From the NCBI GenBank assembly GCA_964404255.1, contig CAYOJJ010000006.1:11567-75566 (forward strand): a DNA stretch of 64,000 bases, given 5' to 3'. Below are positions 12,470 through 62,800 of the stretch, one piece after another. Origin of the DNA: an uncultured Alphaproteobacteria bacterium. Its GTDB lineage: Bacteria; Bacteroidota; Ignavibacteria; Palsa-1295. The notes beneath the pieces were generated by a model. It was given only the letters and a program-made list of their open reading frames with translations, had not been told where the DNA came from and made no database searches. Numbering within the stretch: the stretch's first letter is position 1; every line of letters starts with the position of its first letter. The position numbers and the translations under genes are program-made.

Positions 12470-12921
12470 GGAAGCTGGTTCAGTACGATCGTTCGTTCGG
12501 TAGGCGATATTTCTTTCAAGAGTATTTCCAAGCGGTGCTCTGGCAAAAAGCTTTCTATTCTCTCCGGCCATTCGATAACGGAAATATTTCCTGCCGGGTA
12601 TAAATACTCTTCCACTCCGAGCTGTAATAATTCTTCTTCATTTTCGAAGCGATAGCAATCAAGATGAAAGAGCAGGAAGGGCGTTCCATCAGGATGGTGA
12701 GCTTCGTATTCATTGGCAAGTGCAAAGGTCGGTGAAGAAATATCTTCGCCCTGAAGGCCGAAGGCTTCGGCGATACCTTTGGTAAGCTGGGTTTTGCCCG
12801 TGCCGAGTTCGCCGCGAAGTACTACAATGATGCCGCCGTTAAGCCATTGCAGGCCGATCTCTTTGCCGATCGAAATAGTCTCTTCGACGCTATGGCTGAT
12901 ATATGATGCCAACTGGCTCAC
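12466..12921 (-). CDS. tsaE: tRNA threonylcarbamoyladenosine biosynthesis ATPase TsaE (YjeE)
   Basis: Walker A GELGTGKT. Its start overlaps the upstream hydrolase stop by 4 nt. Confidence 0.8.
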   Translation of the reverse strand: MSQLASYISHSVEETISIGKEIGLQWLNGGIIVVLRGELGTGKTQLTKGIAEAFGLQGEDISSPTFALANEYEAHHPDGTPFLLFHLDCYRFENEEELLQLGVEEYLYPAGNISVIEWPERIESFLPEHRLEILLKEISPTERTIVLNQLP

Positions 12922-43127: not shown

Positions 43128-44003
43128 GTGTCTTATATTTGTAGAGACCATTACTCTACAATGAACTTAAATACTATTAAGATACTGTTACTTGCGCTCC
43201 TACTGCCACTGGTAGGTGCTAATACCATGGCTAAAAGCCAGAAGGTATGGTACCAGCTTGAGGGCAAAGGTACGCGCACGATTGTGTTGCTTCACGGAGC
43301 CTGCATCAATAGTTCGTACTGGAGCAATCAAGTGGCTCACCTAAAAGACAAGTACATGATCCTGACGATCGATCATGCCGGTCATGGCAAATCGAAGGAT
43401 ATGTCCGGGCCATACACACTTGAGCGTTTTGCAAACGATGCGGTTGGCATTATTAAGAGCTTAAAACTCGATAGTATTATTCTCGTGGGGCATTCGATGT
43501 CCGGCGATATAAGCCTGCACATTCATCATGCCTTAAAGGGCAAGGTGCTTGGCATTATCGGCATAGATAATTTTAAGGGCCTCGGTGCCGAGATGCCTCC
43601 AGAGCAAAAAAAGCAGATGGATGGATTTATGAAGCTAATCGATAAAGATTTTGCTGGCAGTATCCCCATGGCCACTTCATTTTTATTTTCTTCAACTACA
43701 GATACTGCTGTTAAGGCTCGGGTGAATAACGATGTGCTTGAAGGCGGGAAGACGCTCTTTCTATCTATATTAAAATCTATAGGTAAGCAAAGTGCTTTTG
43801 AACGCAGCGAAGCAAAGCAACTGAAAGTGCCGTTATTCCTGGTTAATAGCGATAAAGATCCCACCGATGAAAGTTTGTTAAAGAAATACTGTGGCGCTTC
43901 TTATAAGATCTGGCAAATTCATAATAGCGGCCATTATCCGATGATCGAACAACCAACGGAGTTTAACCGACTTCTTGACGAAGCACTCGCCTCAATTAAA
44001 TAA
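43128..44003 (+). CDS. Secreted alpha/beta-hydrolase
   Basis: Signal peptide, HGACINSSYW and the nucleophile motif GHSMSG. Confidence 0.7.
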   Translation: MSYICRDHYSTMNLNTIKILLLALLLPLVGANTMAKSQKVWYQLEGKGTRTIVLLHGACINSSYWSNQVAHLKDKYMILTIDHAGHGKSKDMSGPYTLERFANDAVGIIKSLKLDSIILVGHSMSGDISLHIHHALKGKVLGIIGIDNFKGLGAEMPPEQKKQMDGFMKLIDKDFAGSIPMATSFLFSSTTDTAVKARVNNDVLEGGKTLFLSILKSIGKQSAFERSEAKQLKVPLFLVNSDKDPTDESLLKKYCGASYKIWQIHNSGHYPMIEQPTEFNRLLDEALASIK

Positions 44004-44007
44004 TAGT

Positions 44008-44637
44008 ATGACTATGCCATCTGCCGATAAACGCATCGACGCTTATATTGCAAAGTCAAAGGAATTTGCTCAGCCAATCTTAACGCATTTCCGAGCGCTC
44101 ATTCATAAGACCTGCCCCGATGTCGAAGAGACCGTAAAGTGGGGAATGCCCTTCTTTACTTATGAAGGTGATAACCTCTGTATGATGGCCGCTTTCAAAG
44201 AGCATTGTGTGCTGGGTTTCTGGAAGGCCAAATTAATGAGTAATAAAAAGCTCATGGAGAATGCTTCATCGGAAGCGGCGATGGGTCACCTCGGGAAGAT
44301 CATGAGCATGAAAGATCTGCCGCCAAATAAAGAGTTGGTGGCCGATATTAAAGAAGCGATGAAGCTCAATGAAGATGGCATTAAGCTTCCGTCAAATAAA
44401 AAAGTCAGCGAAGAAAAGAAGAAAGCGCTCAAGACACCGGCTTATCTTACTGCCGCCTTAAAACGTAATAAAAAAGCATGGGCGGTATTCGATGCCTTTG
44501 CCTACTCGCATAAGAAGGAATATATCCAGTGGATCGAAGAGGCAAAGACCGAAGCGACTCGTGAAAAAAGAATTGCCCAAGCTATCGAATGGATAAGCGA
44601 GGGCAAAGGACGTAATTGGAAATATCAGAAAAAGTAA
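44008..44637 (+). CDS. DUF1801 + YdeI/OmpD-associated domain protein
   Basis: The N-terminus (IDAYIAKSKEFAQPILTHFRALI...VKWGMPFFTY) and C-terminus (YIQWIEEAKTEATREKRIAQAIEWI) match the two families. Confidence 0.6.
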   Translation: MTMPSADKRIDAYIAKSKEFAQPILTHFRALIHKTCPDVEETVKWGMPFFTYEGDNLCMMAAFKEHCVLGFWKAKLMSNKKLMENASSEAAMGHLGKIMSMKDLPPNKELVADIKEAMKLNEDGIKLPSNKKVSEEKKKALKTPAYLTAALKRNKKAWAVFDAFAYSHKKEYIQWIEEAKTEATREKRIAQAIEWISEGKGRNWKYQKK

Positions 44638-47009: not shown

Positions 47010-47507
47010 ATGAGTTATATTCCATTCGATAGACTACCAGATCACTCCCGCTTGTGGATTTTTGCCGCCGATAGAGCGCTATCCGAGGCGGAAGCCGCAG
47101 CGTTAATTAACGAGTTGCAGGGCTTTGTCCAGACCTGGCTTGCCCACGGAATGCCGGTAACCGGAAGCTGCCAAATGAACTACGGGCAGTTTCTTTTTAT
47201 CGCCGCCGATGAATCGACCCTGCCGACGGGCTGCTCCACCGATGAAATGACCCGCCGCGTCAGGATGCTTGGCGAGACCTACGGGGTAGAATTTCTCGGC
47301 ATGCCGAAAGTCTATTACCGCAAGGGCGATGCCATCCAAACGATTGGCAGGTTTGAATTTGGCGATCTGGCAAAAACCGGCGAAGTTGGCCGCACGACGA
47401 CCGTCTTCGATAATACACTGACTAAGCTCGCCGATCTGCGAGGCGGCAAGTGGGAAGTACCGGCGGCCGAGAGCTGGCATGCAAAGGCGTTTGAATTTCA
47501 GGGATAA
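47010..47507 (+). CDS. Hypothetical protein
   Basis: 165-aa ORF with typical composition, located upstream of the tRNA. Confidence 0.45.
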   Translation: MSYIPFDRLPDHSRLWIFAADRALSEAEAAALINELQGFVQTWLAHGMPVTGSCQMNYGQFLFIAADESTLPTGCSTDEMTRRVRMLGETYGVEFLGMPKVYYRKGDAIQTIGRFEFGDLAKTGEVGRTTTVFDNTLTKLADLRGGKWEVPAAESWHAKAFEFQG

Positions 47508-47562: not shown

Positions 47563-47634
47563 TGCCTCGTGGCCTAATGGTATGGCATCTGATTCTGGAT
47601 CAGCAGGTTCCAGGTTCGAGTCCTGGCGAGGCAG
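47563..47634 (+). tRNA. tRNA, most likely tRNA-Gln (anticodon CUG)
   Basis: Cloverleaf: 7-bp acceptor stem TGCCTCG/CGAGGCA, T-arm CCAGG-TTCGAGT-CCTGG, and anticodon loop TTCTGGA with U33 and CTG at positions 34-36. One mismatch at 27:43 makes the isotype call less certain. Confidence 0.7.
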
Positions 47635-47635
47635 C

Positions 47636-47664
47636 AAAAAGGGACTCATCGAGTCCCTTTTTTA
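47636..47664 (+). terminator. Rho-independent terminator after tRNA
   Basis: AAAAAGGGACTCATCGAGTCCCTTTTTTATT: a perfect 8-bp stem, a 4-nt loop and a T-run. Confidence 0.8.
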
Positions 47665-47675
47665 TTGCGTATTAG

Positions 47676-47745
47676 TTTGGTTAGGGTCAAAGGGTCATGG
47701 GGTCAAAGCCTAGGGGTTTGACCCCATGACCCTTGACCCTTGATC
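47676..47745. repeat. Left copy of ~65-bp palindrome-containing direct repeat (ATTAGT..GGGTCAAAGGGTCATGGGGTCAAA-spacer-TTTGACCCCATGACCCTTGACCC)
   Basis: Imperfect inverted repeat with ~23-nt arms built from GGGTCA units. It shares ~80% identity with the copy at 52910-52975. Confidence 0.75.
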
Positions 47746-48057
47746 CTACCTTTCGAATTAATTGGTATCCTTTTGCCGTTATTGAGGTGCGTTTATTTTC
47801 CATCATCACAATATGACCGGAATATTGAAGCTGATAATAAGGTGGTCGGCCGTGGCGGACAACCTATTGTTTTTCTTTCGGGAATGTTTGGCTAACAGAT
47901 CACACCTACGGCATTCACCATATTCATCTAAAAAAGATGAGTATCTGTACATACCGCCCCCACAGTTCTGCGCGAGCATTAAGCAATAATGAACATCCAT
48001 ACTCGTTACTTTATGCTACTTAACCTAGTTAGATAAAGAACTACTAGAAATTTATAT

Positions 48058-48906
48058 ATGAATTTTGATCAATTTAGGGACGAAGATCCCTTAGCAAACC
48101 ATGAACGACTTCGTTCCAATTTCGTCAGGCAATTCGTACAACACTACAACACGCCATCCAGGACGCGGACAGCATATAATAAAGCAACGCCAAAACGCAT
48201 AGTACAATTTTGGGATAATCTTGATCAATTACCTCAGGATGTTAAAGAATGTATGGATTCTTGGAGGGTACTTGAACGGTCTGGATTTGAATTTCAGATT
48301 TTTGACGAAACGACGGCAAGAGAGTTTATCAAGGCTCAATTAGGCTCAAGATATGGAAAAGCATTTGATAAGTGTTATCATCCTTCAATGAAGTCCGACT
48401 ATTTCCGGTATAGCTACATTTTCGTAGAGGGTGGTTTCTATATTGACGCAGATGATGTCTACCATGGAGCTGTGATCGATCATCTATTTGCTGATGGGAG
48501 ATTGAAACTTCAACCATTCTGTTATGATATTGCAACAAATCAAATGGTTTCACCTTCATCTTTTGTGAATCAGGGAGCAAACAAAACGAGTTGGATTTTT
48601 TATTTCAATACAACACCATTAATCGCAAGTCCCAAACACCCTATTGTTGAACGGGCACTGCTTAACGCTACTACATATCTTGAGCAAGTATCAGAAGGAG
48701 AATTACCAGAAGTTCAGGCTTCCACTGGTCCAGGCAACCTCACCAGATCTATTTTTGAACTGCTCGCTGATCAAGCCTGTCCTGAGGAAGAATTGCTTAT
48801 TTTACATGATTGGGAGAAGATATCTACTAGTAAATGGCCGCTTAGTTATCGAAATGACAAAAGGAATTGGAGGCTTTCTAATCAGCAAGCCTATCAAACT
48901 TCATAA
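48058..48906 (+). CDS. Glycosyltransferase family 32-like (DXD sugar-binding region)
   Basis: RIVQFWDNL ... SMKSDYFRYSYIFVEGGFYIDADDV matches the GT32/Gly_transf_sug signature. The gene is AT-rich. Confidence 0.65.
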   Translation: MNFDQFRDEDPLANHERLRSNFVRQFVQHYNTPSRTRTAYNKATPKRIVQFWDNLDQLPQDVKECMDSWRVLERSGFEFQIFDETTAREFIKAQLGSRYGKAFDKCYHPSMKSDYFRYSYIFVEGGFYIDADDVYHGAVIDHLFADGRLKLQPFCYDIATNQMVSPSSFVNQGANKTSWIFYFNTTPLIASPKHPIVERALLNATTYLEQVSEGELPEVQASTGPGNLTRSIFELLADQACPEEELLILHDWEKISTSKWPLSYRNDKRNWRLSNQQAYQTS

Positions 48907-48920
48907 CAAAAATAGAAGCC

Positions 48921-51149
48921 ATGAACTTACTACGCCCTCAACTGGCCATTATCAGTTATGCTTTTCGAACGTGGCTCTCTTTTCGCAGGCTTCTACATAA
49001 ACGAAGGTGTCAAGCATTTGGTATTAAACGTAACGGAAAGCGCTTGCAAATTGAGAAGATCTATGTTATCAACCTTAACCGTGAACCTGGACGTTGGGCC
49101 AGGATGAAGCAAGAGCTCAAACGAATATTTGACTCATCAGGAGTTGAACTCCTAAATTTATCTGTGCGGCATGTTGCTATTGATGCTAATGAGTTTTCAC
49201 GAAATCCGTCTAAAGATGCTCAGATCGATCCTTTTTACACCCTTGAAGATCAGTTATTTGTAGAACCCCAACCGCTGGTTCTTCCAACCCGCCTCGAACT
49301 AAATGAACCGATTCGAATGAGTCGAGCTGAGTGTGCCGTTGCGCAATCACATATCAGTGTATGGAAACAGGTTGCTGAGAGTAATAACGAATACGTACTC
49401 ATACTTGAGGATGATGTATGGTTTCATTTAAACTTCGCAAGCGATTTAGATAAGGTGTGGAATGATCTAGAAAATGATTTGCAGGGTAAATTTGACATTC
49501 TTTATTTGTCTTATCTTGAAGTAAAGCATGGTGCGCCAAAAACTATTTTGTCAAGGAATGTATTTAGACCAATGCGTGGACTTTGGCACCTGTCTGGGTA
49601 TGTGCTTTCTAGAAATGGCGCTGAAAAACTTCTAGGTCTTCTCCCATGTCGTGGCCCGATTGATCTTTGGATAAATCAGCAGTTCAAAACATTGGATGTG
49701 CTTGCAGCTAAACATTCTCTTATTAGCCAACGCAGGGACACTAAATCTAGCAATTCGTATTCAATACTTCCCACACTTACTAAGATAGGGGCAATCACTA
49801 GTGAGGGGGCAGCATTATTTAATATCCGGCCAGCTGAGCAGCCCGTATTTGCTTTTGGCCCTGAAGGTACTGGCCAGTCATCGCTTGCAATGGCCTTGTC
49901 TATGCTAGGATACAGGTGCTGTAGTGATTTCCAAGATATACCTTTAGCTGAAATGGATAATCTTCTCAATGGAAGAGCGGAGAGAGTTTTCAATGCATAC
50001 GTGAATATTGGCTCTTTGTATTCAAAAGTTACGGAGCTCCTGATTCTATACCCAAAGGCAAAGTTTATTATTACGGCAGATAAAAAAGCCGTTTCAGACG
50101 AGATGTTCTTGAAAATGGAAGATAGTCTGAGAAATGCCGATCTGGCTATACTTTATTCAGAAAAATTGAATACGTGGCAAACCATTTGCGAACACTTAAG
50201 GTGTGCGCCACCTAAATGCTCTTACCCTATGGTGAAGGATATTGGTCAAAGACCAATTCTCAACACAAAGAATGAACACAAACCGGCTATAAAAACAAAG
50301 ATTCCTAAACGTGATAGCTCACCATGGGTCATTGAGTCCCATAAGTTATGGCGAGGTATCAGTCTTGTCGAGACAAGGAGTTGGCAGGTTGATACTGGAA
50401 CATTAGTCAAAATCACCGACTCTTTGGAATCTCATGATGCAAAACTGTGGCACCTAAGGAGAGATACTTTCACCGATAACTTGGCATTGTTTCGCCCGTC
50501 AAATGTCGAGTTTAAATCAGGTATAGGAGCTGTGCTTAACGTAAAAAAGGAATCCGTCGGCGTTCGAGATTACACTGCTGCATCGTTATCCAGCCAAAAC
50601 CAATACTTATTCGGAAAATTCGAAGCAACCATCAAAGCATCCAATGTTCCAGGAGTAGTCACTGGACTATTTCTCTACCGCAACTCCCCCCGACAGGAAA
50701 TAGATATCGAAATTACGGGTAATCGGCCAAACCGGCTCTTGGTTAATGTATTTTACAACCCAGGTACTGAAGGAGCAAACTTTGATTATGGTTATAGAGG
50801 AGCTCCGACTTATATTGAATTAGGGTTTGATGCATCTAAGGAAAGTCATCGCTTTCAAATTGAATGGGATCCGTACGAAATTAGATGGTTGGTTGACGAC
50901 AACCTCGTTCATAAACGAACTGTATGGAATCCGACACCTATTCCAGACCTTCCTATGACGTTCCATGTTAATAATTGGGTCTCTCGTTCTGCACAGCTTG
51001 CTGGGCGAATTAACAAACGACATCTCCCAGCTACCTCCATAGTTAGTGAAGTCACACTAACGGCAAATGTCGTCATTCAAAAATCCGAGGACAATGAACC
51101 GCAGTTGCAGACCCTTACTAATGTTAACCCAAGTCAGTTTATTCAATGA
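48921..51149 (+). CDS. Multidomain glycan-modifying enzyme: N-terminal GT25-like glycosyltransferase, central P-loop/sulfotransferase-like region (tentative), C-terminal GH16 glycoside hydrolase/transglycosylase
   Basis: The N-terminus (EKIYVINLNREPGRWARMKQEL ... YVLILEDDVWFH) is GT25-like. The middle has FAFGPEGTGQSSL. The C-terminus (QEIDIEITGN ... FQIEWDPYEIRWLVDDNLVHKRT) carries the GH16 ExDxE catalytic motif. Confidence 0.6.
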   Translation: MNLLRPQLAIISYAFRTWLSFRRLLHKRRCQAFGIKRNGKRLQIEKIYVINLNREPGRWARMKQELKRIFDSSGVELLNLSVRHVAIDANEFSRNPSKDAQIDPFYTLEDQLFVEPQPLVLPTRLELNEPIRMSRAECAVAQSHISVWKQVAESNNEYVLILEDDVWFHLNFASDLDKVWNDLENDLQGKFDILYLSYLEVKHGAPKTILSRNVFRPMRGLWHLSGYVLSRNGAEKLLGLLPCRGPIDLWINQQFKTLDVLAAKHSLISQRRDTKSSNSYSILPTLTKIGAITSEGAALFNIRPAEQPVFAFGPEGTGQSSLAMALSMLGYRCCSDFQDIPLAEMDNLLNGRAERVFNAYVNIGSLYSKVTELLILYPKAKFIITADKKAVSDEMFLKMEDSLRNADLAILYSEKLNTWQTICEHLRCAPPKCSYPMVKDIGQRPILNTKNEHKPAIKTKIPKRDSSPWVIESHKLWRGISLVETRSWQVDTGTLVKITDSLESHDAKLWHLRRDTFTDNLALFRPSNVEFKSGIGAVLNVKKESVGVRDYTAASLSSQNQYLFGKFEATIKASNVPGVVTGLFLYRNSPRQEIDIEITGNRPNRLLVNVFYNPGTEGANFDYGYRGAPTYIELGFDASKESHRFQIEWDPYEIRWLVDDNLVHKRTVWNPTPIPDLPMTFHVNNWVSRSAQLAGRINKRHLPATSIVSEVTLTANVVIQKSEDNEPQLQTLTNVNPSQFIQ

Positions 51150-52780
51150 AAATTATATCATTTAATCCCGGTCATGATGGCGCTTTTGTTTACCTCGAAG
51201 ACGGGCAGTTGATTGCCTCGATTGAAGCTGAGAAAAACTCTCGTTATCGTCACTCGCCGCTTTCTGTGCCAGATGCGTTCAGCATTCTAGGTGAACTTAG
51301 AGAGGTGCCGGATGTGCTTTGTAGAGGAGGGTGGTGGCCAGGCAATTCTCTTTCGTCTGAGCAGCGCTCTCTTGCTGGATACTATGGTTTAAGCAACAGT
51401 GATATTATCACCGGTCAAAAACGCCTTTTAGGAAAGAATGTTGATTATTTCTCCTCTTCGCACGAACGATCCCATCTTCTTTGCGCCTTTGGTATGTCAG
51501 ATTTACCAAAGGGAACCCCCTGCTACGCTCTACTTTGGGAAGGCGTGATCGGTTCGTTTTACGAAATTGATGCTGAGTTAAATTTGACAAAACTCGCGGA
51601 TGTTATGCCTGAGCCAGGACATCGATATGCCTTGCTTTACGGCTTGGCTGACCCAACCTTTGATAAAAAAAATGCAGAATTCTCGCGATTTTCCGACGCA
51701 GGGAAGTTAATGGCATTAACTTCATTTTCGAAGAGAAGCAAACCTACGGATGAGGAGGAAAAGATAATAGAGTTTCTAATGCAAGACACTCTTCATCTAA
51801 AGGCATACGAGTGCGAAGCCTTAAGACATTATTGTCACTATAATGTAGGATTGGATGATGTTGAGTTTCGTAACTTCACAGGTATAGTAAGCGATAGAAT
51901 ATTTGATCGTTTTTATCAGTATGCCAAATTGAAGATGAAGAGAAACATGCCGCTGCTCATTACTGGTGGGTGTGGTCTTAATTGTGATTGGAATTCGAAA
52001 TGGAGCGAGGCTAATCTCTTTTCGGAAATATTTGTACCACCTGTCGCCAATGATTCAGGGTCAGCTATTGGCACGGCGATTGATGCCCAATTCCATTTCA
52101 CTGGCAATCCTAAGATAAATTGGAGTGTCTACTCTGGTCTTGAATTTAATGCTGAGGGCCCATTTGATGCATCATTATTTGACGAGTACGAAACAAGTTA
52201 TACAATGATTTCTGAAATGCTTGCAAATGATTTGATTGTCGGATGGGTAGATGGGAAATATGAAATTGGCCCTCGTGCCTTGGGAAATCGTTCAATTCTT
52301 GCTTCACCCTTTCATGAAAGCACTAGAATTCGGCTAAACGAGATTAAGCAGCGCGAACAGTTTCGCCCAATTGCACCTGTTTGCTTAGAAGAAGATGCTC
52401 CAAGATGGTTTAATTGCAATCAGTCTAGCCCATATATGCTTTACACGAAGATTGTTTCTACAGATGCTCTCGCTGCGGTGACCCACGTCAATGGTACTGC
52501 ACGTATACAAACGGTATCTAATAAAACCAACAGCCACTTATATAAATTGCTTATTGCCTTCAAGGCACTCACTGGCTATGGGGTTTTGTGTAATACTTCT
52601 TTGAATTTCAAGGGGAGAGGATTCATAAACAATATTGCTGATCTCGCAACATATACAATAGACCACAATTTGGATGGATTTGTAATTGCAGAAAAATGCT
52701 ATATGTTAAGGAGCTCTAAAAGTTATCAGGCCTATCTTAGTATCAAAAATTCAGTACGGCACAGGGAACGCCAAAATTGA
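51146..52780 (+). CDS. Carbamoyltransferase, NodU/CmcH family
   Basis: MKIISFNPGHDGAFVYLEDGQLIASIEAEKNSRYRHS is a carbamoyltransferase N-terminal signature; 544 aa. ATGA overlap with the previous gene. Confidence 0.75.
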   Translation: MKIISFNPGHDGAFVYLEDGQLIASIEAEKNSRYRHSPLSVPDAFSILGELREVPDVLCRGGWWPGNSLSSEQRSLAGYYGLSNSDIITGQKRLLGKNVDYFSSSHERSHLLCAFGMSDLPKGTPCYALLWEGVIGSFYEIDAELNLTKLADVMPEPGHRYALLYGLADPTFDKKNAEFSRFSDAGKLMALTSFSKRSKPTDEEEKIIEFLMQDTLHLKAYECEALRHYCHYNVGLDDVEFRNFTGIVSDRIFDRFYQYAKLKMKRNMPLLITGGCGLNCDWNSKWSEANLFSEIFVPPVANDSGSAIGTAIDAQFHFTGNPKINWSVYSGLEFNAEGPFDASLFDEYETSYTMISEMLANDLIVGWVDGKYEIGPRALGNRSILASPFHESTRIRLNEIKQREQFRPIAPVCLEEDAPRWFNCNQSSPYMLYTKIVSTDALAAVTHVNGTARIQTVSNKTNSHLYKLLIAFKALTGYGVLCNTSLNFKGRGFINNIADLATYTIDHNLDGFVIAEKCYMLRSSKSYQAYLSIKNSVRHRERQN

Positions 52781-52861
52781 GACTATCGAGAAGTTGTCGG
52801 CAACATTAGAAATAGAAATGTACAAACTGTTTATTAAAGACTCTTATTTGAAATAATAACG

Positions 52862-52890
52862 AAGCCGCTCAAACGCGGCTTTTTATTTTG
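52862..52890 (+). terminator. Rho-independent terminator of glycan cassette
   Basis: AAGCCGCTCAAACGCGGCTTTTTATTTT. Confidence 0.75.
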
Positions 52891-52909
52891 AAATGGGTGC
52901 TGCTTTTTA

Positions 52910-52978
52910 ATTAGTATCAGGGTCATAGGGTCAAACCCCTATAGGTTTGACCCTATGACCCTTTGACCCTGGGGTTGC
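52910..52978. repeat. Right copy of palindrome-containing direct repeat (ATTAGTATCAGGGTCATAGGGTCAAACC-CCTATAGG-GTTTGACCCTATGACCCTTTGACCCTGG)
   Basis: Near-perfect 18-nt inverted arms around a palindromic centre. It shares the ATTAGT...AGGGTCA.AGGGTCA...ATGACCCTTTGACCCT backbone with the 47676-47745 copy. Confidence 0.75.
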
Positions 52979-54044
52979 GGTAGTGCCCTGGGCGTCCTTT
53001 GGTTAATCCTTCTCTAATACCTCTTTTGGCAGTGGAGTGTGATACCTCGAACTGGTCCTGGTAGCGCTGAAGTAATTCCCCATACGGCAGTTCTTCCTCG
53101 TCATCCTCAAAGAGGAGGGAGCAATCTCTTTCCGGTTTATAACTTCCGGGTAGGGTAAAATCGCTGTGGGGCCGTTCGTTGCCGGTGCGGGTAAAGGTAA
53201 GGGAGTGCTCATGAAACTGCAATTCGAGCGCTTTTTCTTTTAGTTTGCCGGAGACTCCATTACCTTTAAGCACCGAAAGGTATCGTATGCCTTCTGCTTC
53301 TCCTTTTCTGAGTTCGAGCAGCAATCTCGTTTTTTGTCCCAGTGCACCGGCGCCTTGTACATGCCGTTGGTTCGGAGCTACGGAATAGGCCGCTTTATTT
53401 AAGTGATGGATAAACAAAAGAAGGCATTCGAATTTATTGGCCAGCAGCGCAAAGGGTTTGAGAAATGCCCGTACATCGGTGTTCGAATTTCCATCCCTGC
53501 CGTTAAAGAGATCGCCGTAGCTATCTAAGACGATCAGATCCACGGGGTTTGCTGAAAGCATCGTGAACAGGTTCTCTAAGAGGGCCTTGGTATGTATCTG
53601 ATCGGCAAAGACTATTTGCAGGTGGTCGCGGTTGCAGCTTGCCGTATGATCTGCGCTAGCCTGCAATTGCTTTGTAAAGGCAAATTGGGTGGTATCGATG
53701 CTATCCTCGGTGGAAACATAGATGGCTCTCGAGTGGCGAAGCGATAAGGGAAAGCCAAGAAATTCGCTGCGGCCAAGGGAAATACTTAAGGCCAGTTCTC
53801 GGCAAAACATCGACTTCCCGCTATCGGGAGCACCGGCAATCGCTGCTAATCCCATCACCGGCATGATAGCGCCCCAGAGGTAGCGGTGCGGGGTGCTCTG
53901 GCGCTCGAGTAACTGGCCGAGCGAAAAGATGTATTGCTCGGATTCCGATTCATTCTCCGCTTGCTTGAAGAACGAGTCTAAGTCGGCGATAGAAGATTCG
54001 GGTTGAAAGATGGAATTCACGGCTTCTTCCGTACTGGGGTTCAT
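52953..54044 (-). CDS. AAA_25/RepA-like RecA-fold ATPase (mobile-element replicative helicase-like)
   Basis: Walker A GAPDSGKSM and Walker B-like IVLDSYGDLF, ~363 aa. The 5' part of the longest ORF overlaps the repeat, so the true start may be downstream. Confidence 0.6.
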   Translation of the reverse strand: MNPSTEEAVNSIFQPESSIADLDSFFKQAENESESEQYIFSLGQLLERQSTPHRYLWGAIMPVMGLAAIAGAPDSGKSMFCRELALSISLGRSEFLGFPLSLRHSRAIYVSTEDSIDTTQFAFTKQLQASADHTASCNRDHLQIVFADQIHTKALLENLFTMLSANPVDLIVLDSYGDLFNGRDGNSNTDVRAFLKPFALLANKFECLLLFIHHLNKAAYSVAPNQRHVQGAGALGQKTRLLLELRKGEAEGIRYLSVLKGNGVSGKLKEKALELQFHEHSLTFTRTGNERPHSDFTLPGSYKPERDCSLLFEDDEEELPYGELLQRYQDQFEVSHSTAKRGIREGLTKGRPGHYRNPRVKGS

Positions 54045-55057
54045 TGGGTGAGTTCTTTCTCTATGTATTCTTTGTAAATGAGATCGGCAGCGTCAAGCCC
54101 GTCCGAAGGATCGGTTGTCAGTTTCCATTGGTCAAGTTTCTCGGCCTGGCAATTGATATCAGTGAGAATCTTGCACGCCTTCTGTGCACCGGTTTCACCG
54201 GCAGTATCGCAATCGTATAATACTTTAACGGTTCTTCCACGAAGGATGAGCGCTTTCTCTTTAGTAAGTCCGTTCGCACCGCCGCTTGCAATCCATATAA
54301 ATTCCGGTTTATGATGACTTAAAATGATAGCCGTTTTTTCCGACTCAACAAGAATAATTTGCGTGTTCCGATTATACGGCACCCCGTACCGATTCTTAAA
54401 TCCCGCACATAACTGATGTTCGCCAAAAAGGCAGGTGTGAAATCCCTCCGATTTTGAATACAGGAAGGAAGCGGGGGAGTGCTTATCGCGGTGGAAGCCA
54501 TCCGGTAAATACTTTATTTTCTTGGCGTTGACATATTGTTGCCGGTAATTCTGGTACCAATAGAGCACGGCTCCATCCGAAGCGAAGCCGATATTCCAGT
54601 CCGATAAAATGCTTTCTCTGGTCAAGCGGATTATTGTCTCAGCAAACGGATGTACTGCGCGAAGCCTTTTAAGCTCCGAGTGCAGGCGTTGGCTTGTAAG
54701 CCCTGAACGCTCGTTTGCTTCTGCGGTCGTTAAGCCACCATCAAACTCCATAATAGCTGCCCTTTCTTCAAATGAGTCGCATTCGGTATTCTGATCTTCG
54801 CTAGCGAACCCTACAATGGTTTTGGCCACCTGTTGCCGATTGATGAATTGCTGCAATTGCTGTGGCCTTGTCTTCTTGCCCTGTTCTCGATGGGCATTCG
54901 CCGTATCGGTTATTGGTGGAAAGATGGTACTGTCACAGGAAAAGCAATGCCCAAAGTGCTCGTGTCCTTTGAACGCAGCAAAGGCAGTCCGAGCAGCACA
55001 TCGGGGGCACCGTGTTCTTTTATTTGAATAAGAATATGTTGGGAATGCAGTAGCCAT
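54041..55057 (-). CDS. DNA primase with CHC2-type zinc finger and Toprim domain (P4-alpha/mobile-element type)
   Basis: N-terminal CPRCAARTAF...GHCFSCDS zinc finger and a C-terminal Toprim region (ILVESEKTAIIL ... VLYDCDTAGETGAQK). ATGA overlap with the ATPase gene. Confidence 0.65.
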   Translation of the reverse strand: MATAFPTYSYSNKRTRCPRCAARTAFAAFKGHEHFGHCFSCDSTIFPPITDTANAHREQGKKTRPQQLQQFINRQQVAKTIVGFASEDQNTECDSFEERAAIMEFDGGLTTAEANERSGLTSQRLHSELKRLRAVHPFAETIIRLTRESILSDWNIGFASDGAVLYWYQNYRQQYVNAKKIKYLPDGFHRDKHSPASFLYSKSEGFHTCLFGEHQLCAGFKNRYGVPYNRNTQIILVESEKTAIILSHHKPEFIWIASGGANGLTKEKALILRGRTVKVLYDCDTAGETGAQKACKILTDINCQAEKLDQWKLTTDPSDGLDAADLIYKEYIEKELTQ

Positions 55058-55225
55058 CGGATCCAGCGGTTGCTAAGACAACATGGCCCGAGCCAAGTGC
55101 CTATAGCTCGGTGGAGGATTGCGGTTTTTCAAATGCATCTGGGCCGAGTTGCCTATTAGTTTGAGACCTAATTTTTAAAATGGTGTCTTACTATACGTGT
55201 ATATTGTGCAGCAGTATTTCTGGTT

Positions 55226-55789
55226 GTGAAACGCCGTCAGTTAACCGATGAGGAATTAATAGCAGGGCTGCGTGGGACTCACCGCGAAGCTGAAATCGCA
55301 TTTACCGAAATCTACAGCCGATATGCACAGCGAACCTATGCGTTCATCTTACGAATGATGGGCGATGGTGCCGCCAGTGAAGATATTCTGCAAGAGGTCT
55401 TTCTTAAATTCTTCAATGCCACCCGGCAGCAATTAGTCTTTACTAACCTTCGGGCATTCATTTTTATGATCGCGCGTAACCAGTGTCTTAATTACAAGCG
55501 GGATGTGCCGCAAACCGAATCGATCGAGCACATGGAATTCGTGGTTCACGAATTTTCAGGAGCGATCGAGCAGAATGAGTTACTGCAGTTGGTTACCTTA
55601 TCGCTGGAGTTACTCGAGATCGAATTTCGAGAAGCGTTTGTGCTCAAGTATTACCAGGGGTATTCGTATGAGGAGATGTCTCAGCTAACCGGCGATACGA
55701 TACCGGCACTCAAGAATAGAGTATGGCGGGCCAAAGAACAAATACGCCGGGCATTGAAACCCTATATAATAGAAGAGCAAAATAAATAG
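55226..55789 (+). CDS. RNA polymerase ECF-type sigma factor
   Basis: Sigma70 region 2 (RYAQRTYAFILRMMGDGAASEDILQEVFLKFF) and region 4 (FREAFVLKYYQGYSYEEMSQLTG). Confidence 0.8.
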   Translation: MKRRQLTDEELIAGLRGTHREAEIAFTEIYSRYAQRTYAFILRMMGDGAASEDILQEVFLKFFNATRQQLVFTNLRAFIFMIARNQCLNYKRDVPQTESIEHMEFVVHEFSGAIEQNELLQLVTLSLELLEIEFREAFVLKYYQGYSYEEMSQLTGDTIPALKNRVWRAKEQIRRALKPYIIEEQNK

Positions 55790-55803
55790 TACTACCTATA
55801 GTT

Positions 55804-56865
55804 ATGTCCTACGAAAAACGGATTCACGATTATTTGGCGGGCGAACTCAGCCCGGAAGAAGAGCGGCGGCTCTTTGACGATCTTTCGGCCCATCCTGAAT
55901 GGCGGCACGAACTTACTGCTCAATTAAAGATCGAGCAGGCAGCCCAAAAAGATTTAGGGACGGTTGTTGTCCCGACTGCTGTGACGGCGGCTATTTTTTC
56001 CTCCCTGGATTTTGCGGCTCCCGATCAATCTATTGCTTCACCGGTAAAGACGATGACTGGAGTTACCGGAACAACTATTCTCTCTCGCTTTGGACTCTTT
56101 GCTATGGTATCAACGGTGTCGGCTATCATAGCAGTTGGATGCTTAGTATTTATGCTGTACCGCTCCTCGGAAACTACACCGATCGTACATTCTGCAAGCG
56201 CCCCTAACGTTTATTCATCGGTACATGATAGTGTACAAACTCACAGTTCTACCTCAGAGCCCAATCAGGTAGTTAAGGCTGCAACTTCGTCGCCTGCCGC
56301 CACAAAAGAAATGACGGCATTGAAAACTCCTTTTATCAAGACTATCCCCAACGAACCAATGAGGTTCTATTTTGATATCGGAAGATTTTCCTCTGTGGAT
56401 TATCTCACACAGAAAAAAATCATCGGTGTTGCCGACGAAGGAAAAATCTATTGTTCGGAAGATGGAGGCAAATCGTGGGAAATGCAAACGAGCGGGACTT
56501 CCAGCGATCTCTATGGAGTACATTTTATCGATACCACTCATGGTATTGCTGTCGGTGCGAAGGGTACCGTCTTACATACCAGTACTGCCGGAAGGGAATG
56601 GCAAAAAATGTCCAGCGGTACCGAAGCGACGCTGGCAACGGTTCGCTATGCTAATCGCGATACCGTTTATGCCTGTGGTGCACAGGGGACTATTATTCGG
56701 AGCACTTCCAGCGGGATACAATGGCAGCAGCTTGAAAGTGGTACAACGGCAAATTTATTTAAGATCAGATTTGAAAACGGTTCGACTGGTATTGTCGGCG
56801 GCGAACACAATCTGACGCTTGAAACCGATAATGCCGGTACTACCTGGCATGTGAAACCACAATAA
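55804..56865 (+). CDS. Anti-sigma factor: N-terminal zf-HC2-like segment, TM helix, C-terminal BNR/Ycf48-like beta-propeller
   Basis: N-terminus MSYEKRIHDYLAGELSPEEERRLFDDLSAHPEWRHEL and a TM segment. The C-terminus has repeated xTSGTxxxLxxVxFxxxxxGxAVGxxGTIL units. Confidence 0.6.
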   Translation: MSYEKRIHDYLAGELSPEEERRLFDDLSAHPEWRHELTAQLKIEQAAQKDLGTVVVPTAVTAAIFSSLDFAAPDQSIASPVKTMTGVTGTTILSRFGLFAMVSTVSAIIAVGCLVFMLYRSSETTPIVHSASAPNVYSSVHDSVQTHSSTSEPNQVVKAATSSPAATKEMTALKTPFIKTIPNEPMRFYFDIGRFSSVDYLTQKKIIGVADEGKIYCSEDGGKSWEMQTSGTSSDLYGVHFIDTTHGIAVGAKGTVLHTSTAGREWQKMSSGTEATLATVRYANRDTVYACGAQGTIIRSTSSGIQWQQLESGTTANLFKIRFENGSTGIVGGEHNLTLETDNAGTTWHVKPQ

Positions 56866-56879
56866 TAATCACGATCGTC

Positions 56880-59800
56880 ATGAAAGATATTGCTATGGCT
56901 ACTCACAGACGAGCTCAATGGTTAGTGCTGGGATTATTATTATGCGGAGCAATAAATATTGCTTCGGCTCAGGTCCCGAAGACTATCTCTTATCAGGGAA
57001 GAATTCAGCAGGGGACTTCGCTTGTGAGCGGCAAACATTTGCTGCACATTGCTTTTTATGATGCCGAGACCGGTGGAACAAAGCTCTACGAAGAATCTCA
57101 ACAGCAGGAAATCTCCGATGGATTATTCTCGATCGTGATCGGGACGGTCACTCCTTTCCCTGCTTCTTTGCCATTCGATAAACCATACTTTCTGGCTATA
57201 AGTATCGATGGTGCGGATGAACTACTGCCGAGAACTCCTATGACGAGTGTTCCTTACTCGCTTAATAGTCATTACGCGGAGTTAGCAAAAGGCCTTACTC
57301 CTGATGCGAATGGAGTTGTCACCAGTATTAATGAATTAAGCGGAGCTATTCGTATAACGGGTGATAGTACAACTGCTATTACGCAAACCGGTAATATAAT
57401 TTCTATTCATTCTTTCGGAAGTGGCAGCACAGCTACTGCCGGAATTCAATCGATTACGAGCCCGGATAAAACAATTGCAATAACCGGTACTGCCGGGCCA
57501 AGCACCACAATCGGTGTTGCCGATAACGCTATTACTACCTCAAAGCTCGCTAACGGTGCGGTTACTCTTTCAAAGATAAATCAGAGTGGCGCTAAAATTG
57601 GGCAGATCATTAAATGGAATGGCAGCTCCTGGGTTGCAGCAGATACGACTATTCCTTCTGCTTCGAATCTTATTCCGGGCACAACACCGAATAGCACCCT
57701 TAGATGGAATGGTACGCAATGGGTGGAAAATACCAATCTCCGCAGTGACGCAACTGGCAATACGAGCGTAAATGGCAGTACTACACTCGGTGATGGGACC
57801 GGTAATGATGACCTCACTATTCAACCCGGCTCCGGCGTAGTAAAGATAGCAGGTTTTGGAAAAGGAGTTGTAAAGAGCACGGCGGTGGGAGTTCTTTCAA
57901 GCACTGCTCTTGATTTAGCGAACGATGTGACCGGTATACTATCAGTCTCAAAAGGTGGTACGGGCGTCTCGACTCTTCCTGTAGGTCAACTGCTTGTCGG
58001 CAACGGAGTAAACCCAATTAGTACCATGAGCTTAAATGCCGGTGCAGGAATTGCTATTAGCTCGAATGGCAGCGCGCTAACTATTACTAATATAGATACA
58101 CTCCAATGGAAACTGCTGGGTAATACTACTATCAATCCTGCTACACAATTTTTAGGCACTACCGATCTGAATCCGATCCCATTTCGTACCAATAATATCG
58201 AGCACATGCGCCTTGATGCATCGGGAAAACTCGGTATCGGTACTACGGTGCCATCTCAATTGCTCGAAGTTAGAAATGGAAATATCCTTATTTCGAATTC
58301 CGGTACAGCAGGGAGTTTACAGATAGCCGCACCGGGAAACAGCTTGTCCACTGCTTTTACAACCTCATCTCAAACGGCCGATATAACATATAAATTACCT
58401 CCAAGCATTGGCACTGCTAATCAGGCGCTCGCCATTGCTTCGGTTTCCGGTACTACCGCTACGCTTGGTTGGGTTAATGCGGCAAGTGCTACGGCCTGGA
58501 ATCTCATCGGCAATAGCAGCACTACTGCCGGAACAAATTTTCTTGGTACCACCGATGATCAGCCACTGTATGTGCAAGTTAAAAATGGCGCGACGGTTTC
58601 CAATAGTCTTATTCTCAATCCTAATGGTTCGATCCAGCATAGCCCAACTCGCAATGCGAGAGGGGCTAGTGCAGTCGATCTTCAGCTCAATGGTGCGGTG
58701 GGCACTCATGTGGCCAGCGGTCAGTATTCGGTACTATCCGGTGGCAGAAATAATGTAGCGGGAGGGGATGGCTCTGTCGTTGCAGGTGGCGAAGGTAATT
58801 CTACCGTTTCAAATTATTCCGTTGTCGGCGGTGGAGCTTCTTCGGTTGCCGGGGGAAGTTATTCCGTTGTAAGCGGAGGAAATTTAAACAGTGCCAGTGG
58901 TGCACTCTCATCGGTGATCGGTGGAATAGCTAACGAGTCATTTGGTGCTCGTTCGTCAGTTCTTGGAGGCGGCTATTTAAAGTTAGGTGCCAATAGTGTC
59001 GGCTATAATTATGAATCCGGGACTACTATAACCAATATCAGTGCTCTGAGCAATCTGGCATATTTTGGTAATGTCGATATGATGATCGGTAATACCGATA
59101 ATACTGCGCGTGAGCTTCGCTTCTACGAACCTAATACGTCCTTCACGTATACTGCTACAAACTTCAGCTCCTTCAAAGCCGGCACACAGGCAAGCGATAT
59201 TATTTATATACTTCCAACTTCACAACCAACGGCTAATCAGGTTCTTTCGGCAACTTCTATAACAGGATCAGGGCCGTATACTATTGGGCTTGGTTGGACG
59301 AACAGTGCTAATGCAGCCTGGAATCTTACAGGTAATAGTGGGACGACGGATGGCACAAATTTTCTCGGCACTACTGATAACGTCCCATTCACTATTCGTG
59401 CAAATAATATACGGGCATTTCGGATAGAGCCGTTTGCAGGTGCAGTAAACATTATTGCGGGAATAAATACTAATAGTGTCGGAAGTGGATTTTCTGGAGC
59501 TACAATTTCCGGAGGAGGATCAACCTTTAGTCCAAATACTATTTCAAATTATTTTGCTACAATATCTGGTGGCGCCCAGAATACTGTTACGGCCAATGGA
59601 GGAGTGGTTGCCGGTGGTCAGGTGAATGCCGCAGGTGGTTCGGTTGGTTCTACGGTTAGCGGTGGTTTTTATAATACTGCAAGCGGTTCATTATCTAGTA
59701 TTGCCGGAGGTTCGAGTTTAAAAGTTGGAAATCTTAGTTTCGGATTCAATGGTGAGCAATATAGCATCAATCCAAGTACTACTATAACAGACATCTCTTC

Positions 59801-62800
59801 GCATTCAAATACCGCTTATTTCGGAAATGTGGACCTATGGCTCGGTAATGTTGATAACACCGCAAGAGGGCTGCGCTTTTACGAACCCAATTCATCGCGC
59901 ACCTATACCAATACTAACTTTTCATCCTTCAAAGCCGGGACACAAACGGATGATATTATTTATACACTGCCGACTTCGCAGCCAACCGTCAATCAGATAC
60001 TTTCCGTCACTTCAGTAAGCGGGTCCTCTCCATACGAAGTAGCCCTTGGCTGGGCAACGAGCACCGGGCCGGCCTGGAATCTTACCGGGAATAGTGGTAC
60101 TACGATCGGCACAAATTTCCTGGGCACGACCGATAATCAACCCTTTGAAATACTTGTAAAGAATGGAAGCTCTATTAGTAATTCCTTGATCTTTGAATCT
60201 AATGGCTCTATTCATCGGGACAATCAGGGGAATGCCCGCGGAGCGTATGCCATCGATCTGCAATCTCTTCCGACCGGTGCCTCAGCACTTCATGTAGCCA
60301 GCGGTAATCAATCTGCCATTTTGGGTGGAGTAAGTAACCAGGCAAGCGGGGCCTATTCTGTTAGCACCGCAGGATATGATAATATCGCATCCGGAGACTA
60401 TTCTGCTATTGGCGGTGGAGATGCAAACAGCGCAACGGGCAGCCATGCAACTATTAGTGGTGGGCGGTATAACGTTGCCTCGGGAGATGGGTCATTTATC
60501 GGTGGCGGTGGTTATCAGGGAGCGACGAAACCTAATGTTGCTGCCGGTACTGCTTCGGCGATTGTCGGAGGATGGGCCAATTATACTGCGGGGTTCTATT
60601 CATCAGTGGCCGGAGGAGAAAGTAATGGGGTAACAGGTACAAGTTCTGCCATTGCCGGAGGAGGATATTTGCGCTTAGCAGGCAACGGATCTTTTGGTTT
60701 TAATAATGGAAGCAGCGCCTCGGATAGTGCTTATGTAAGTGCGAACGCTACGGCCTATTTTGGCAATGTCGATCTGTGGCTTGGTAATACCAATAACACC
60801 GCAAGCCAGTTGAGATTTTATGAAGCGCAAAATGGCGGCATAACCATGCCGGGAGCTGCTACAAATTATTCGGCATTCAAAGCCGGTGCACAAACAGCCG
60901 ATATTACTTATACGCTTCCAACAACCCAGCCGAGCGCTAATCAAGTGCTTTCGGCAACGACCGTCAGTGGAACGGGGCCTTATTCCGTAACTCTTGGTTG
61001 GGCAGATGCCGGTACTGGCAGTGGGTTTGTCAATTACGGTCCAACGACTGCTCAAGCTACACTGACTCCGAGAACAACACCGCTATTTAATATAGCCTAT
61101 ATATCTTCTGCCGCTAATGCTAATGCCGCAGGCGCTACTATTACATCCAGTGCAGGAACCGCGGGTAATTTTAATGCTACCGGTCTAACTGTTATTGCTA
61201 CTGCTACCGGCACCGGGCTTGCAAGAGCTATCGATGCAACCGGAAGAGTAAATATTAATGCGCCGTCGAGTTATGATATTGGCGGGACAAGATTTTTATG
61301 GACGGGCGCAAATTCTTCAAATCAGAATACTCTGGTCGGTAATACCGGGAATACAGTAAATGCTGCAAACCTTAATACGTTTGTAGGATACAATGCCGGA
61401 TACAGCAATGATTATGGGGATGGTAATACGTTTCTGGGTGCAGAAAGCGGTAAGAATACAAACGGCGCTTCTGGCTCGGATAACACATTCGTTGGCGCTG
61501 AATCGGGCTATTCGAATACTGATGGAACACAGAATACTTTTATCGGCAGTTATTCCGGCTATTTCAATACTACAGGAAATTATAATATTTTTATTGGTGA
61601 AAATACCGGTTTTTCAAATGTCAGTGGGACAAGCAATACATTTGTGGGAATGAATGCCGGCTGGCAAAATACGGCAAACAGTAATTCGCTGTTCGGACAA
61701 GGTTCTGGATTTAACCTTAAAACAGGATCAAACAATACCTTTATAGGAGTATCAAGCGGTTACTACGATACTTCGGGAGGAAGTAACGTTATGATCGGGG
61801 TCAGTTCGGGCCTTTACCATAAGGCCGGAGATAATAATACCTACATCGGAAGAGGCTCGGGAAGTATCGATACGGCAGGTATCAATAATACAATGATAGG
61901 ATATGGAGCAAGCCCAACGGCAGGTCATTTCAGTAATGCGACAGCTATTGGAGCTTCGGCACAGGTCGGCGCAAGTAATAGTATCATTCTCGGTAGTATT
62001 TCCCCGGTAACAAAAGTCGGAATTGGTACCATTGCTCCGCAACAACAATTAAATATTGAGAACGGTAATGTTCTTCTTTCGAGAACGACAGGCAATAGTC
62101 CGGATTCAATACAATTCCAGGGTACGGGCACCGGAATATCTTCATTTGCTGCCGGAGCCCAAAGTACAACCACGATAAATTATACATTGCCGACCTCGCA
62201 GCCAAGTGCTAACCAAGTGCTGACGGCAAGTTCGGTAAGTGGCTCTGGTCCCTATTCGGTTGCTCTTAGTTGGGCTAATAGTACTGCGTCGGTTTGGAGT
62301 CTGTCCGGAAATAGTGGAACAAGTTCTTCGTCCAATTTTATTGGCACGACGGATAATCAGGATCTCGTCATTAAAACCAATAATAGTGAGGCTCTTCGGG
62401 TAAAAGCCTCCGGGAATATTGGTCTTGGCACCACTACTCCTTCTCATAAATTACATAGTGTTAATAGCACCACTACCGATGAAGTTGCTGCTATCTATGG
62501 TACTACCACCAGCTCGACTTCCAGCCAGTCTATTGGTATGTGGGCAGATGCAAGTAATACTGCCACTTCAAATACCGGTACTATTGCTATGCTTGCTACG
62601 GGTAATGGGAATACAACGGCCGGACAAACCAACATTGCCCTCCAGGTAAACGATGGAGAATTTACTATAGGAAGAACAACAGAAACGCCAACGACGGGTA
62701 CCACCGTTAATGCTGCTACCGGTGGTACCGATTACTCTGCAGAAGGACCGAGTGGGATGGTTGAATTGACACTGGGCAATGGAAATCTTGCAACTGCTGC

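Follow-up and report, generated by a model that had tools for sequence, protein, structure and literature searches.

The described systems closest to the locus reported here, an island behind a tRNA-Gln gene in a 64-kb stretch of contig CAYOJJ010000006.1 (assembly GCA_964404255.1; hereafter the window), include integrative elements that carry their own replication genes. Integrative mobilizable elements and mobilizable transposons of Bacteroides (Tn4555/NBU type) combine a tyrosine integrase, a helix-turn-helix (HTH) protein, an AAA ATPase and a DUF6371 primase-like protein with cargo, and NBU-type elements integrate at the 3′ ends of tRNA genes. The AAA ATPase, DUF6371 and Mob occur together both in a 10-kb Bacteroides fragilis element bearing cfxA and in a Butyricimonas plasmid. 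P4-like satellites and phage-inducible chromosomal islands (PICI) likewise have an integrase, an AlpA-type HTH_17 protein, a primase and a helicase, integrate at tRNA genes and have an iteron origin, satellite origins being positioned beside the replication gene. Small sets of sugar-modifying genes are also carried on mobile elements beside tRNA genes, as in the gtrABC and oac cassettes of phages; gtr systems are made up of membrane proteins, namely a flippase, a bactoprenol glucosyltransferase and a serotype-specific transferase.

In the window, the tRNA-Gln(CTG) gene is followed by a terminator, a first palindrome copy, three genes on the + strand, a second terminator, a second palindrome copy and, on the − strand, a helicase and a primase gene. 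A preliminary description of this DNA had read the arrangement as one decayed or rearranged integrative element carrying a surface-glycan modification cassette, with a repeat copy listed on either side of the cassette. All of the features it named (tRNA, terminators, repeats, three genes, ATPase and primase) are present where it placed them, and its Gln-like tRNA is tRNA-Gln(CTG). We consider it probable that the region is a mosaic island of about 7.6 kb (47,636 to about 55,225), with a core tRNA-Gln(CTG) gene on one side and a core extracytoplasmic function (ECF) sigma factor operon on the other, in which two unrelated pieces stand together: the remnant of an integrative element and a separately mobile cassette of sugar-enzyme genes. 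The inspected DNA was the 64-kb window of a 147-kb contig, and all close relatives were metagenome-assembled genomes (MAGs). The features are as follows, with folding given as free energy and z-score and lengths in amino acids (aa).

47010 to 47507, + strand: conserved 165-aa gene, left core flank, outside the island.
47563 to 47635, + strand: tRNA-Gln(CTG) (ARAGORN; Rfam tRNA, 63.5 bits).
47636 to 47663, + strand: terminator-like hairpin with T-run after the tRNA (RNA fold −17.4 kcal/mol, z −5.6).
47683 to 47740, no strand assigned: palindrome copy 1 (DNA fold −30.2 kcal/mol, z −8.5).
47806 to 48000, − strand: 64-aa open reading frame (ORF) in the 317-nt spacer after palindrome copy 1, a candidate remnant of a Zn-ribbon gene.
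48058 to 48906, + strand: cassette gene 1, GT32-like glycosyltransferase (Pfam Gly_transf_sug, 6e-7; Caps_synth, 5e-6).
48921 to 51149, + strand: cassette gene 2, 742-aa fusion of GT25, a weak Sulfotransfer_4 match and GH16 (Pfam).
51146 to 52780, + strand: cassette gene 3, NodU/TobZ-type O-carbamoyltransferase (Carbam_trans_C, 1e-54; Carbam_trans_N, 8e-21).
52861 to 52890, + strand: terminator-like hairpin with T-run after the cassette (terminator called at 52861 to 52882; −13.4 kcal/mol, z −4.0).
52919 to 52970, no strand assigned: palindrome copy 2 (DNA fold, z −6.3).
52953 to 54044, − strand: AAA_25 (RepA/DnaB-like) helicase (Pfam AAA_25, 5e-25; PHROG primase/helicase families).
54041 to 55057, − strand: DUF6371 Zn-finger/Toprim primase (Pfam DUF6371, 3e-23).
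55058 to 55225, no strand assigned: right junction of the island, where HTH_17, a large ORF and an integrase would be expected and are absent.

The closest homologues of the primase (40 to 58% identity) were found in six contexts, all of which have one backbone order: a tyrosine integrase (Phage_int_SAM_5/Phage_integrase), a large ORF of 400 to 670 aa, an AlpA/excisionase-like HTH_17 protein, the DUF6371 primase, the AAA_25 helicase, one or two small ORFs and then cargo. The small ORF after the helicase encodes a Zn-ribbon protein in three members, the related loci L001 (166 aa), L030 and L117. The cargo consists of type I restriction-modification systems, DNA methyltransferases, a kinase/ORC-like protein, a patatin, and PTPS/GTP cyclohydrolase genes with ParB_N. 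No Pfam or PHROG match was obtained for the large ORF; this, and its lack of similarity to the Bacteroides Mob protein, led us to reject it as a Mob protein or relaxase. The detectable primase homologues, about 140, all have DUF6371; homologues of 334 to 337 aa are 50 to 58% identical. On Bacteroides plasmids and the cfxA-bearing element, more distant DUF6371 proteins have AAA ATPases and Mob proteins as neighbours, and others are encoded on small "phage" contigs from faeces. A search of the literature on DUF6371 returned nothing relevant. The preliminary description had taken the primase and ATPase as marks of an integrative element and had left their family to be established. Their homologues in six integrase-containing contexts bear this out, and the alternative of a chromosomal replication system was not borne out; judged by this homology, the pair are replication genes of a mobile element, and the family is that of the integrase/large ORF/HTH_17/DUF6371/AAA_25 elements of Kapabacteria-like Bacteroidota.

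This family differs from the described elements in several respects. Compared with the Bacteroides elements, identity to the window primase is 27 to 31% over half of its length, and their gene order is reversed, with the ATPase before DUF6371. Unlike them, the Kapabacteria family has no recognisable Mob protein or relaxase, and the window copy has neither integrase nor Mob. In contrast to P4 and PICI, primase and helicase are here two distinct proteins, drawn from other families (DUF6371/Toprim and AAA_25), and the cargo is made up of defence genes. No genes for capsid redirection, packaging or helper exploitation were recognised in family members with Pfam and PHROGs, which left many ORFs unassigned.

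The window primase and helicase are 52% and 49% identical, respectively, to their counterparts in L001. In that locus, the integrase of an intact element lies 176 nt after a tRNA-Gln(CTG) gene, which itself follows an orthologue of the 165-aa gene (69% identity); the same tRNA therefore hosts an intact family member in a relative. Both window genes are well preserved. The primase ORF is full-length, with an N-terminal CxxC...HC..C zinc-finger motif, and in the alignment it retains all family-invariant residues, including the ESEKT and DCD Toprim motifs. The helicase retains Walker A and B and an intact core, and its alignment stops at the conserved NPR motif. It is without the variable C-terminal tail, as is one homologue of 367 aa, which is similarly short; most homologues run on for another 40 to 120 aa. 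As in the rest of the family, the two genes are co-oriented and their ends overlap by 4 nt. Their GC content at third codon positions (GC3) is host-like (0.48 to 0.56).

The integration module is missing. None of the family's HTH_17, large ORF and integrase genes stands upstream of the window primase. Using tblastn and a family hidden Markov model (HMM) on the six-frame translation, we found no integrase in the 64-kb window, and the family profiles of HTH_17 and the large ORF matched nothing there either. The window also contains no attR: the 23-mer from the tRNA 3′ end does not recur at up to three mismatches, and no exact match to the tRNA 3′ end of 11 nt or longer exists. L001 likewise has no repeat of the tRNA 3′ end of at least 11 nt. 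A recombinase and an att repeat, both expected of a tRNA-integrating element, are thus lacking in the window, as the preliminary description had noted from its own reading, and integrases are present in the intact relatives. Orientation differs as well, with the helicase and primase genes pointing toward the tRNA in the window and away from it in L001. We conclude that the primase-helicase-palindrome module is a truncated, inverted remnant of an integrative element, which gives a definite form to the earlier wording "decayed or rearranged": the integration module is absent, and the piece is inverted relative to the L001 copy. With the integrase, large ORF and HTH_17 gone, no attR and a break in synteny, the remnant would therefore be unable to integrate or excise by itself. 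We also entertained the idea, from variants common to the window and L001, that the 3′ half of the tRNA was derived from the element. It was rejected because L007 has some of these variants, A29 and the 3′-terminal GC, at another location, with no element seen alongside.

The state of these genes bears on another explanation, in which the primase, helicase and palindrome have been kept as a working unit, whether through domestication or through mobilisation in trans by the integrase of a related element. Both ORFs are intact with all invariant residues, their codon usage is host-like, and the deletions end precisely at two gene ends, as this explanation would have it. No att sites are detectable, however, and the helicase has lost its C-terminal tail; moreover, there are no close relatives for a test of purifying selection, every protein being a singleton at 90% identity except GT32. 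We regard such a unit as quite unlikely, and prefer to see the module as a remnant.

The palindrome offers further information on this module. Copy 1 has CCTAGG at its centre, with three GGGTCA(A/T)N iterons before it and three inverted ones after it; copy 2 has a central CTATAG and overlaps the last codons of the helicase gene, the stop codon lying inside the palindrome. The copies, of about 55 bp, are 87 to 90% identical, with similarity limited to a core of about 52 nt, and they align equally well in either orientation. An extended direct-repeat structure around them was considered and rejected, since the similarity stays within the core and the relative orientation is ambiguous. The motif has two sites in 64 kb, against 0 expected by chance. 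In L001, L030 and L032, a palindrome lies inside the 3′ tail of the helicase gene (gene nt ~1070 to 1145), right after the NPR codons, and the L117 helicase tail contains a degenerate one. Its start within the gene is at nt ~1075 for window copy 2, ~1066 in L001, 1079 in L030 and 1100 in L032. All of these are composed of two or three direct iterons of 6 to 8 nt, a CTATAG or CCTAGG centre and inverted iterons, and the iterons differ from element to element (GGGTCA in the window, GGTATCA in L001, TGTCCAG in L032 and GTCTCA in L030). The same position in the helicase gene and the same architecture across elements therefore make the palindrome a conserved cis element of the family. By analogy with described replicons, it is most likely an origin or a helicase-loading site. 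Copy 2 is thus a conserved helicase-tail feature of the family, and the repeats are not boundaries of the cassette as such; copy 1, adjoining the tRNA, is an additional instance of this helicase-tail palindrome.

As a separate observation, the palindrome centres (window 47709 and 52939; L001 9316; L030 11921; L032 9192) are alike, CTATAG or CCTAGG, despite the differing iterons. The common centre may be a conserved nicking or melting site.

Alternatively, the palindromes could be genome-wide repeats of the repetitive extragenic palindromic (REP) type that land after terminators, their position around the cassette being coincidental. Both copies do lie about 20 to 30 nt past terminator hairpins, flanking repeats were seen in 2 distinct cases among 52 cassette loci and so are no general property of the cassette, and the inspection covers 64 kb of the genome. 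Against this, palindromes of like build, each with its own iteron sequence, occupy the same helicase position in L001, L030 and L032, and a search of the window and of 29 related loci turned up no further copy. A REP-like origin is therefore very unlikely in our estimate, and we treat the palindrome as part of the element.

The second piece is a cassette that extends from about 48,030 to 52,900 on the + strand, opposite to the strand of the primase and helicase. The product of gene 1 has an intact DXD motif (DAD at residue 130) and no relative in the PDB was found for it by sequence. The gene 2 product, in which a P-loop domain stands between GT25 and GH16, has an intact GH16 catalytic motif (EIDIE, residues 593 to 597), and its PDB relatives are lichenase-type GH16 enzymes and COLGALT1-type GT25 (collagen galactosyltransferase). 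Gene 3 matches PHROG 1601 (6e-80); it has both carbamoyltransferase domains of NodU/NolO, TobZ, GdmN and NovN, and TobZ, GdmN and NovN are its relatives in the PDB, the nearest solved ones. It scores 253 bits against the NodU equivalog cut-off of 1000, and its partners (GT32 and the GT25-GH16 fusion) differ from those in the nodulation and antibiotic pathways. The cassette genes have a GC content of 0.40 to 0.42 and a GC3 of 0.32 to 0.38, against 0.50 ± 0.06 in the window (z −1.9 to −2.8), and the cassette is compositionally foreign, unlike both the element backbone and the chromosome.

Our survey of the cassette covered 80 metagenome loci and one contig from IMG/VR. Identity to the 742-aa protein is 65 to 76% among the best 120 full-length homologues listed, whose hosts are given by their sources as MAGs of Bacteroidales, Bacteroidota, Syntrophorhabdus and Gammaproteobacteria. 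Except at contig ends and in a few variants with two genes, the cassette is colinear across the 81 loci. In the recovered loci, identity is 54 to 74% for the 742-aa protein and 68 to 84% for the carbamoyltransferase, and plasmid copies are at 36 to 57%. The surroundings vary widely: flank GC ranges from 0.33 to 0.67 against 0.37 to 0.59 for the cassette, and among 942 flanking ORFs no family occurs in more than five loci. In five subgroups, a single cassette alignment of about 4.7 to 5.0 kb was obtained at 84 to 97% DNA identity, and homology of the flanks is absent in almost every pair. For example, the cassettes of L040 (flank GC 0.64) and L045 (0.41 to 0.45) are 91% identical. The edges of homology are sharp, beginning about 30 or about 265 nt before the first ATG, depending on the subgroup, and ending about 20 to 150 nt past the last stop codon.

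Genes in the flanks include those for integrases, IS21 and rve transposases, AAA_15/21 ATPases (AriA/PtuA/GajA-like), HerA, Mrr, GmrSD and ResIII. The cassette is also present on the IncC conjugative plasmid pCf164_LMB-1 of Citrobacter freundii (NZ_MH475146.1, L121), beside IS21 and a DUF262 gene and with the carbamoyltransferase gene alongside that of the 742-aa homologue, and on plasmids of Rhizorhabdus, Klebsiella, Aliarcobacter, Sphingobium and Rhizobium. On the Aliarcobacter butzleri plasmid (L122), the gene for the 742-aa homologue lies near a Shedu nuclease and a restriction-modification S subunit; on the IMG/VR (virus-classified) contig, the cassette lies beside a portal gene and a D12 methyltransferase. 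By these comparisons, the cassette is a separate mobile unit, found in about 70 unrelated contexts and transferred among distant hosts.

Around the cassette, neither noncoding ends that are conserved nor terminal inverted repeats nor duplicated target sites proved general, and 50 of the 52 cassette loci have no flanking repeats, the others being this window and L076/L077. Integron cassettes are comparable in forming a tight unit, one subgroup having homology from about 30 nt before the first ATG to about 100 to 150 nt past the last stop codon. They differ in that the present unit has three genes and about 4.8 kb, far above the typical size, with no IntI gene identified. The window has no attC-like sites, its flanking palindromes being element iterons, and the left-edge motif of the cassette, GTTCGCC, fits the GTTRRRY core poorly.

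Two observations on cassettes elsewhere are recorded here. In L076 (1292 to 1437 and 6568 to 6714; the same in L077), the cassette is bracketed by 147-bp direct repeats of 86% identity, with GTATAAC/GTTATGC and CGTATGTG/CACATACG as the pairing ends, which enclose inner hairpins rich in GC. This attC-like layout, R''-L''...L'-R', suggests an integron-type cassette in that genome. In one subgroup (L064, ~4256 to 4528; L056, L071, L079 and L089), a 5′ leader of about 265 nt is 74 to 97% identical across unrelated contexts. This leader has no match in Rfam; it may act as a regulatory RNA or hold a promoter.

Given these contexts, we weighed the earlier proposal that the island is one decayed element with a native surface-glycan cargo, like the O-antigen cassettes of phages at tRNA genes. 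In its favour, the cassette sits exactly at the cargo position of the family, downstream of the helicase, and beside a tRNA gene; its Pfam families are those of glycosyltransferases and a carbamoyltransferase, and PHROGs files similar carbamoyltransferases and glucosyltransferases as phage morons. However, the cassette is missing from all six other family members, whose cargo is of the kinds listed above, and it differs from the backbone in GC3 and moves alone into unrelated contexts. The gtrABC likeness also fails at the level of the proteins, the families here being GT32-like, GT25/GH16 and carbamoyltransferase: there is no GtrA flippase, GtrB or GT2 protein, no polytopic Gtr-type transferase and no Wzx/Wzy. 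No transmembrane segment and no hydrophobic or signal-like N-terminus was predicted for the three cassette proteins, whose peak 19-residue Kyte-Doolittle means (0.71 to 1.31; 0.71 for gene 1) are under the usual transmembrane threshold of 1.6. Nor are polysaccharide-synthesis families among the most frequent flank families at the other cassette loci, where the neighbours are defence genes, insertion sequence (IS) elements, integrases, plasmid genes and a phage portal gene. We therefore think it unlikely that the cassette is native cargo, and the likening to O-antigen modification finds no footing in these data; a mosaic of two unrelated pieces accounts for them better.

The limits of the island were set by comparison with relatives. 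The 165-aa gene on the left is 62 to 73% identical in Kapaibacterium/Ignavibacteria MAG loci (L002 to L007), and the tRNA-Gln gene follows it in L001, L003 and L004. A genome scan with this gene places the source bacterium among Kapaibacterium-like members of the Bacteroidota/Ignavibacteria group; the collection lacks the source itself, its best match being 73% identical. In L003 and L004, the left flank is shared (DUF5655-like gene, 166-aa gene, M3 peptidase and 165-aa gene) together with the tRNA-Gln, and all island genes are absent. These two loci provide the tRNA-Gln site free of the island that the preliminary description had proposed to look for. Downstream of the tRNA, one has a copper oxidase, a Cu-ATPase and PPK2, and the other a hemerythrin, ScdA and a cytochrome c. 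The compositional shift that goes with this absence is due to the cassette, the backbone genes not being compositionally distinct.

On the right, an ECF sigma operon conserved in relatives starts 168 nt from the start of the primase gene. This trio (55226 to 63077) encodes an ECF sigma factor, a BNR-repeat anti-sigma factor and a giant surface protein of 2065 aa, with 49 to 72% identity in L118 to L120, where its upstream neighbours vary (ArgC/ArgJ or FKBP/RsgA); in one MAG, the trio and the 165-aa gene are on separate contigs. Since the trio is conserved with other upstream neighbours, the right edge of the island must lie somewhere within 55058 to 55225, and the island is the site of a synteny break. 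A supposed homology of the right flank to the cargo of L030 was rejected, as it amounts to generic BNR similarity and the trio is a conserved core operon. In Kapabacteria-like genomes, the C-terminus of the anti-sigma factor of this trio is a BNR/Ycf48-like beta-propeller and the third member is a secreted protein of about 2100 aa. Just inside the two island edges, at 47665 to 47679 and 55149 to 55163, there is a 15-nt direct repeat, TTGC(G/C)TATTAGTTTG, with 14 of 15 positions matching. It is unrelated to the tRNA (repeat family D14) and could be a vestigial att-like repeat, a promoter-like sequence or chance.

A break in synteny at palindromic repeats of a metagenome contig also raises the question of an assembly artefact, through a misjoin or an inversion. 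The close relatives are all MAGs, the breakpoints coincide with the palindromes and the orientation is unexpected. The repeats, on the other hand, are short and divergent for a misassembly, the genes at the junctions are intact and composition shifts exactly at gene boundaries. An artefact is thus extremely improbable, and we take the mosaic as present in the genome.

How the two pieces met can be proposed in outline. The first piece (52,919 to 55,057, − strand) is the replication part of a family of integrative elements circulating in Kapabacteria-like Bacteroidota; it has lost HTH_17, the large ORF and the integrase and has kept intact primase and helicase ORFs. The helicase would most likely load at the palindrome, by analogy with the iteron origins beside rep genes in satellites and plasmids. 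The second piece, the cassette, occupies the cargo position downstream of the helicase and between the two palindrome copies, and was either captured by the element or inserted later at the hairpin-forming palindrome. Speculatively, both the window and L076 would agree with a circular intermediate having inserted at a site that forms hairpins.

Several points weigh against this account. The role of the palindrome as an origin is drawn from its position and from analogy with iteron origins beside rep genes, and no family member with available DNA, L001 and L032 among them, has a second palindrome copy. The 64-aa ORF in the spacer gave an E value of about 0.01 in pairwise BLASTP against the 166-aa Zn-ribbon protein of L001; with the HMM of the Zn-ribbon family it was the top match in the window, at a nonsignificant E value of 0.46. 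The cassette is absent from all other family members with available DNA, and the integration module that is missing here could be located in another part of the genome, beyond the 64-kb window. Finally, lipopolysaccharide-core glycosyltransferases are also soluble or peripheral proteins; as such soluble enzymes exist, the predicted solubility of the cassette proteins is compatible with a surface-glycan role.

As to function, the cassette enzymes presumably form a soluble pathway that builds and carbamoylates a short glycan or glycoside. A surface-glycan role is possible, with no positive support in these data. Known defence systems were also considered: no match to PADLOC-DB v2 was obtained for the three cassette proteins at E values up to 0.01, and the cassette was rejected as a known system. 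A literature search on the domain combination, and on carbamoyltransferases in defence islands, found nothing relevant. Tentatively, and as a possibility that we would put somewhat short of even, the cassette may be an undescribed mobile module of about 4.8 kb without a recombinase of its own, which crosses phyla (Bacteroidota, Pseudomonadota, Campylobacterota and Syntrophorhabdus MAGs, an IncC plasmid and a virus-classified contig), prefers hotspots of defence genes and mobile genetic elements, and in at least two cases lies between copies of a hairpin-forming site (the iteron palindrome here and attC-like repeats in L076). Its soluble enzymes might then produce or alter a cytoplasmic glycoconjugate or small glycoside that acts in conflict, in defence, counter-defence or chemical warfare rather than in the decoration of surface polysaccharides.

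Outside the island, the window contains other variable DNA. A 1027-aa NACHT/STAND NTPase gene (33916 to 36999, − strand) is low in GC (0.35 overall; GC3 0.30, z −3.1) and matches nothing in PADLOC. In L006 and L007, the syntenic genes lack the stretch between them that spans about 33.9 to 43.97 kb in the window, and this stretch looks like a second variable islet, possibly with an Avs/bNACHT-like defence gene. In L003 and L004, orthologues of window positions 11840 to 15808 directly adjoin the orthologue of 43975 to 44637; therefore, about 28 kb of the window (15808 to 43975) is inserted or rearranged relative to these loci.

The island itself is ordinary, a tRNA hotspot with the stump of an integrative element, and the leads that it provides are the cassette and the palindrome of the helicase gene. 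Embedded in the helicase reading frame, the palindrome is a concrete candidate origin with element-specific iterons, and a hitherto unnamed family of elements with defence cargo is now delineated in Kapabacteria-like Bacteroidota. The cassette, called "glycan modification" after its domains, proves to be a promiscuous and highly conserved three-gene unit, which counsels caution with names taken from domains; its DNA identity reaches 84 to 97% between hosts that differ by 0.2 in flank GC. As clinical IncC and Klebsiella plasmids and cultured strains carry it, direct study of the cassette is possible.

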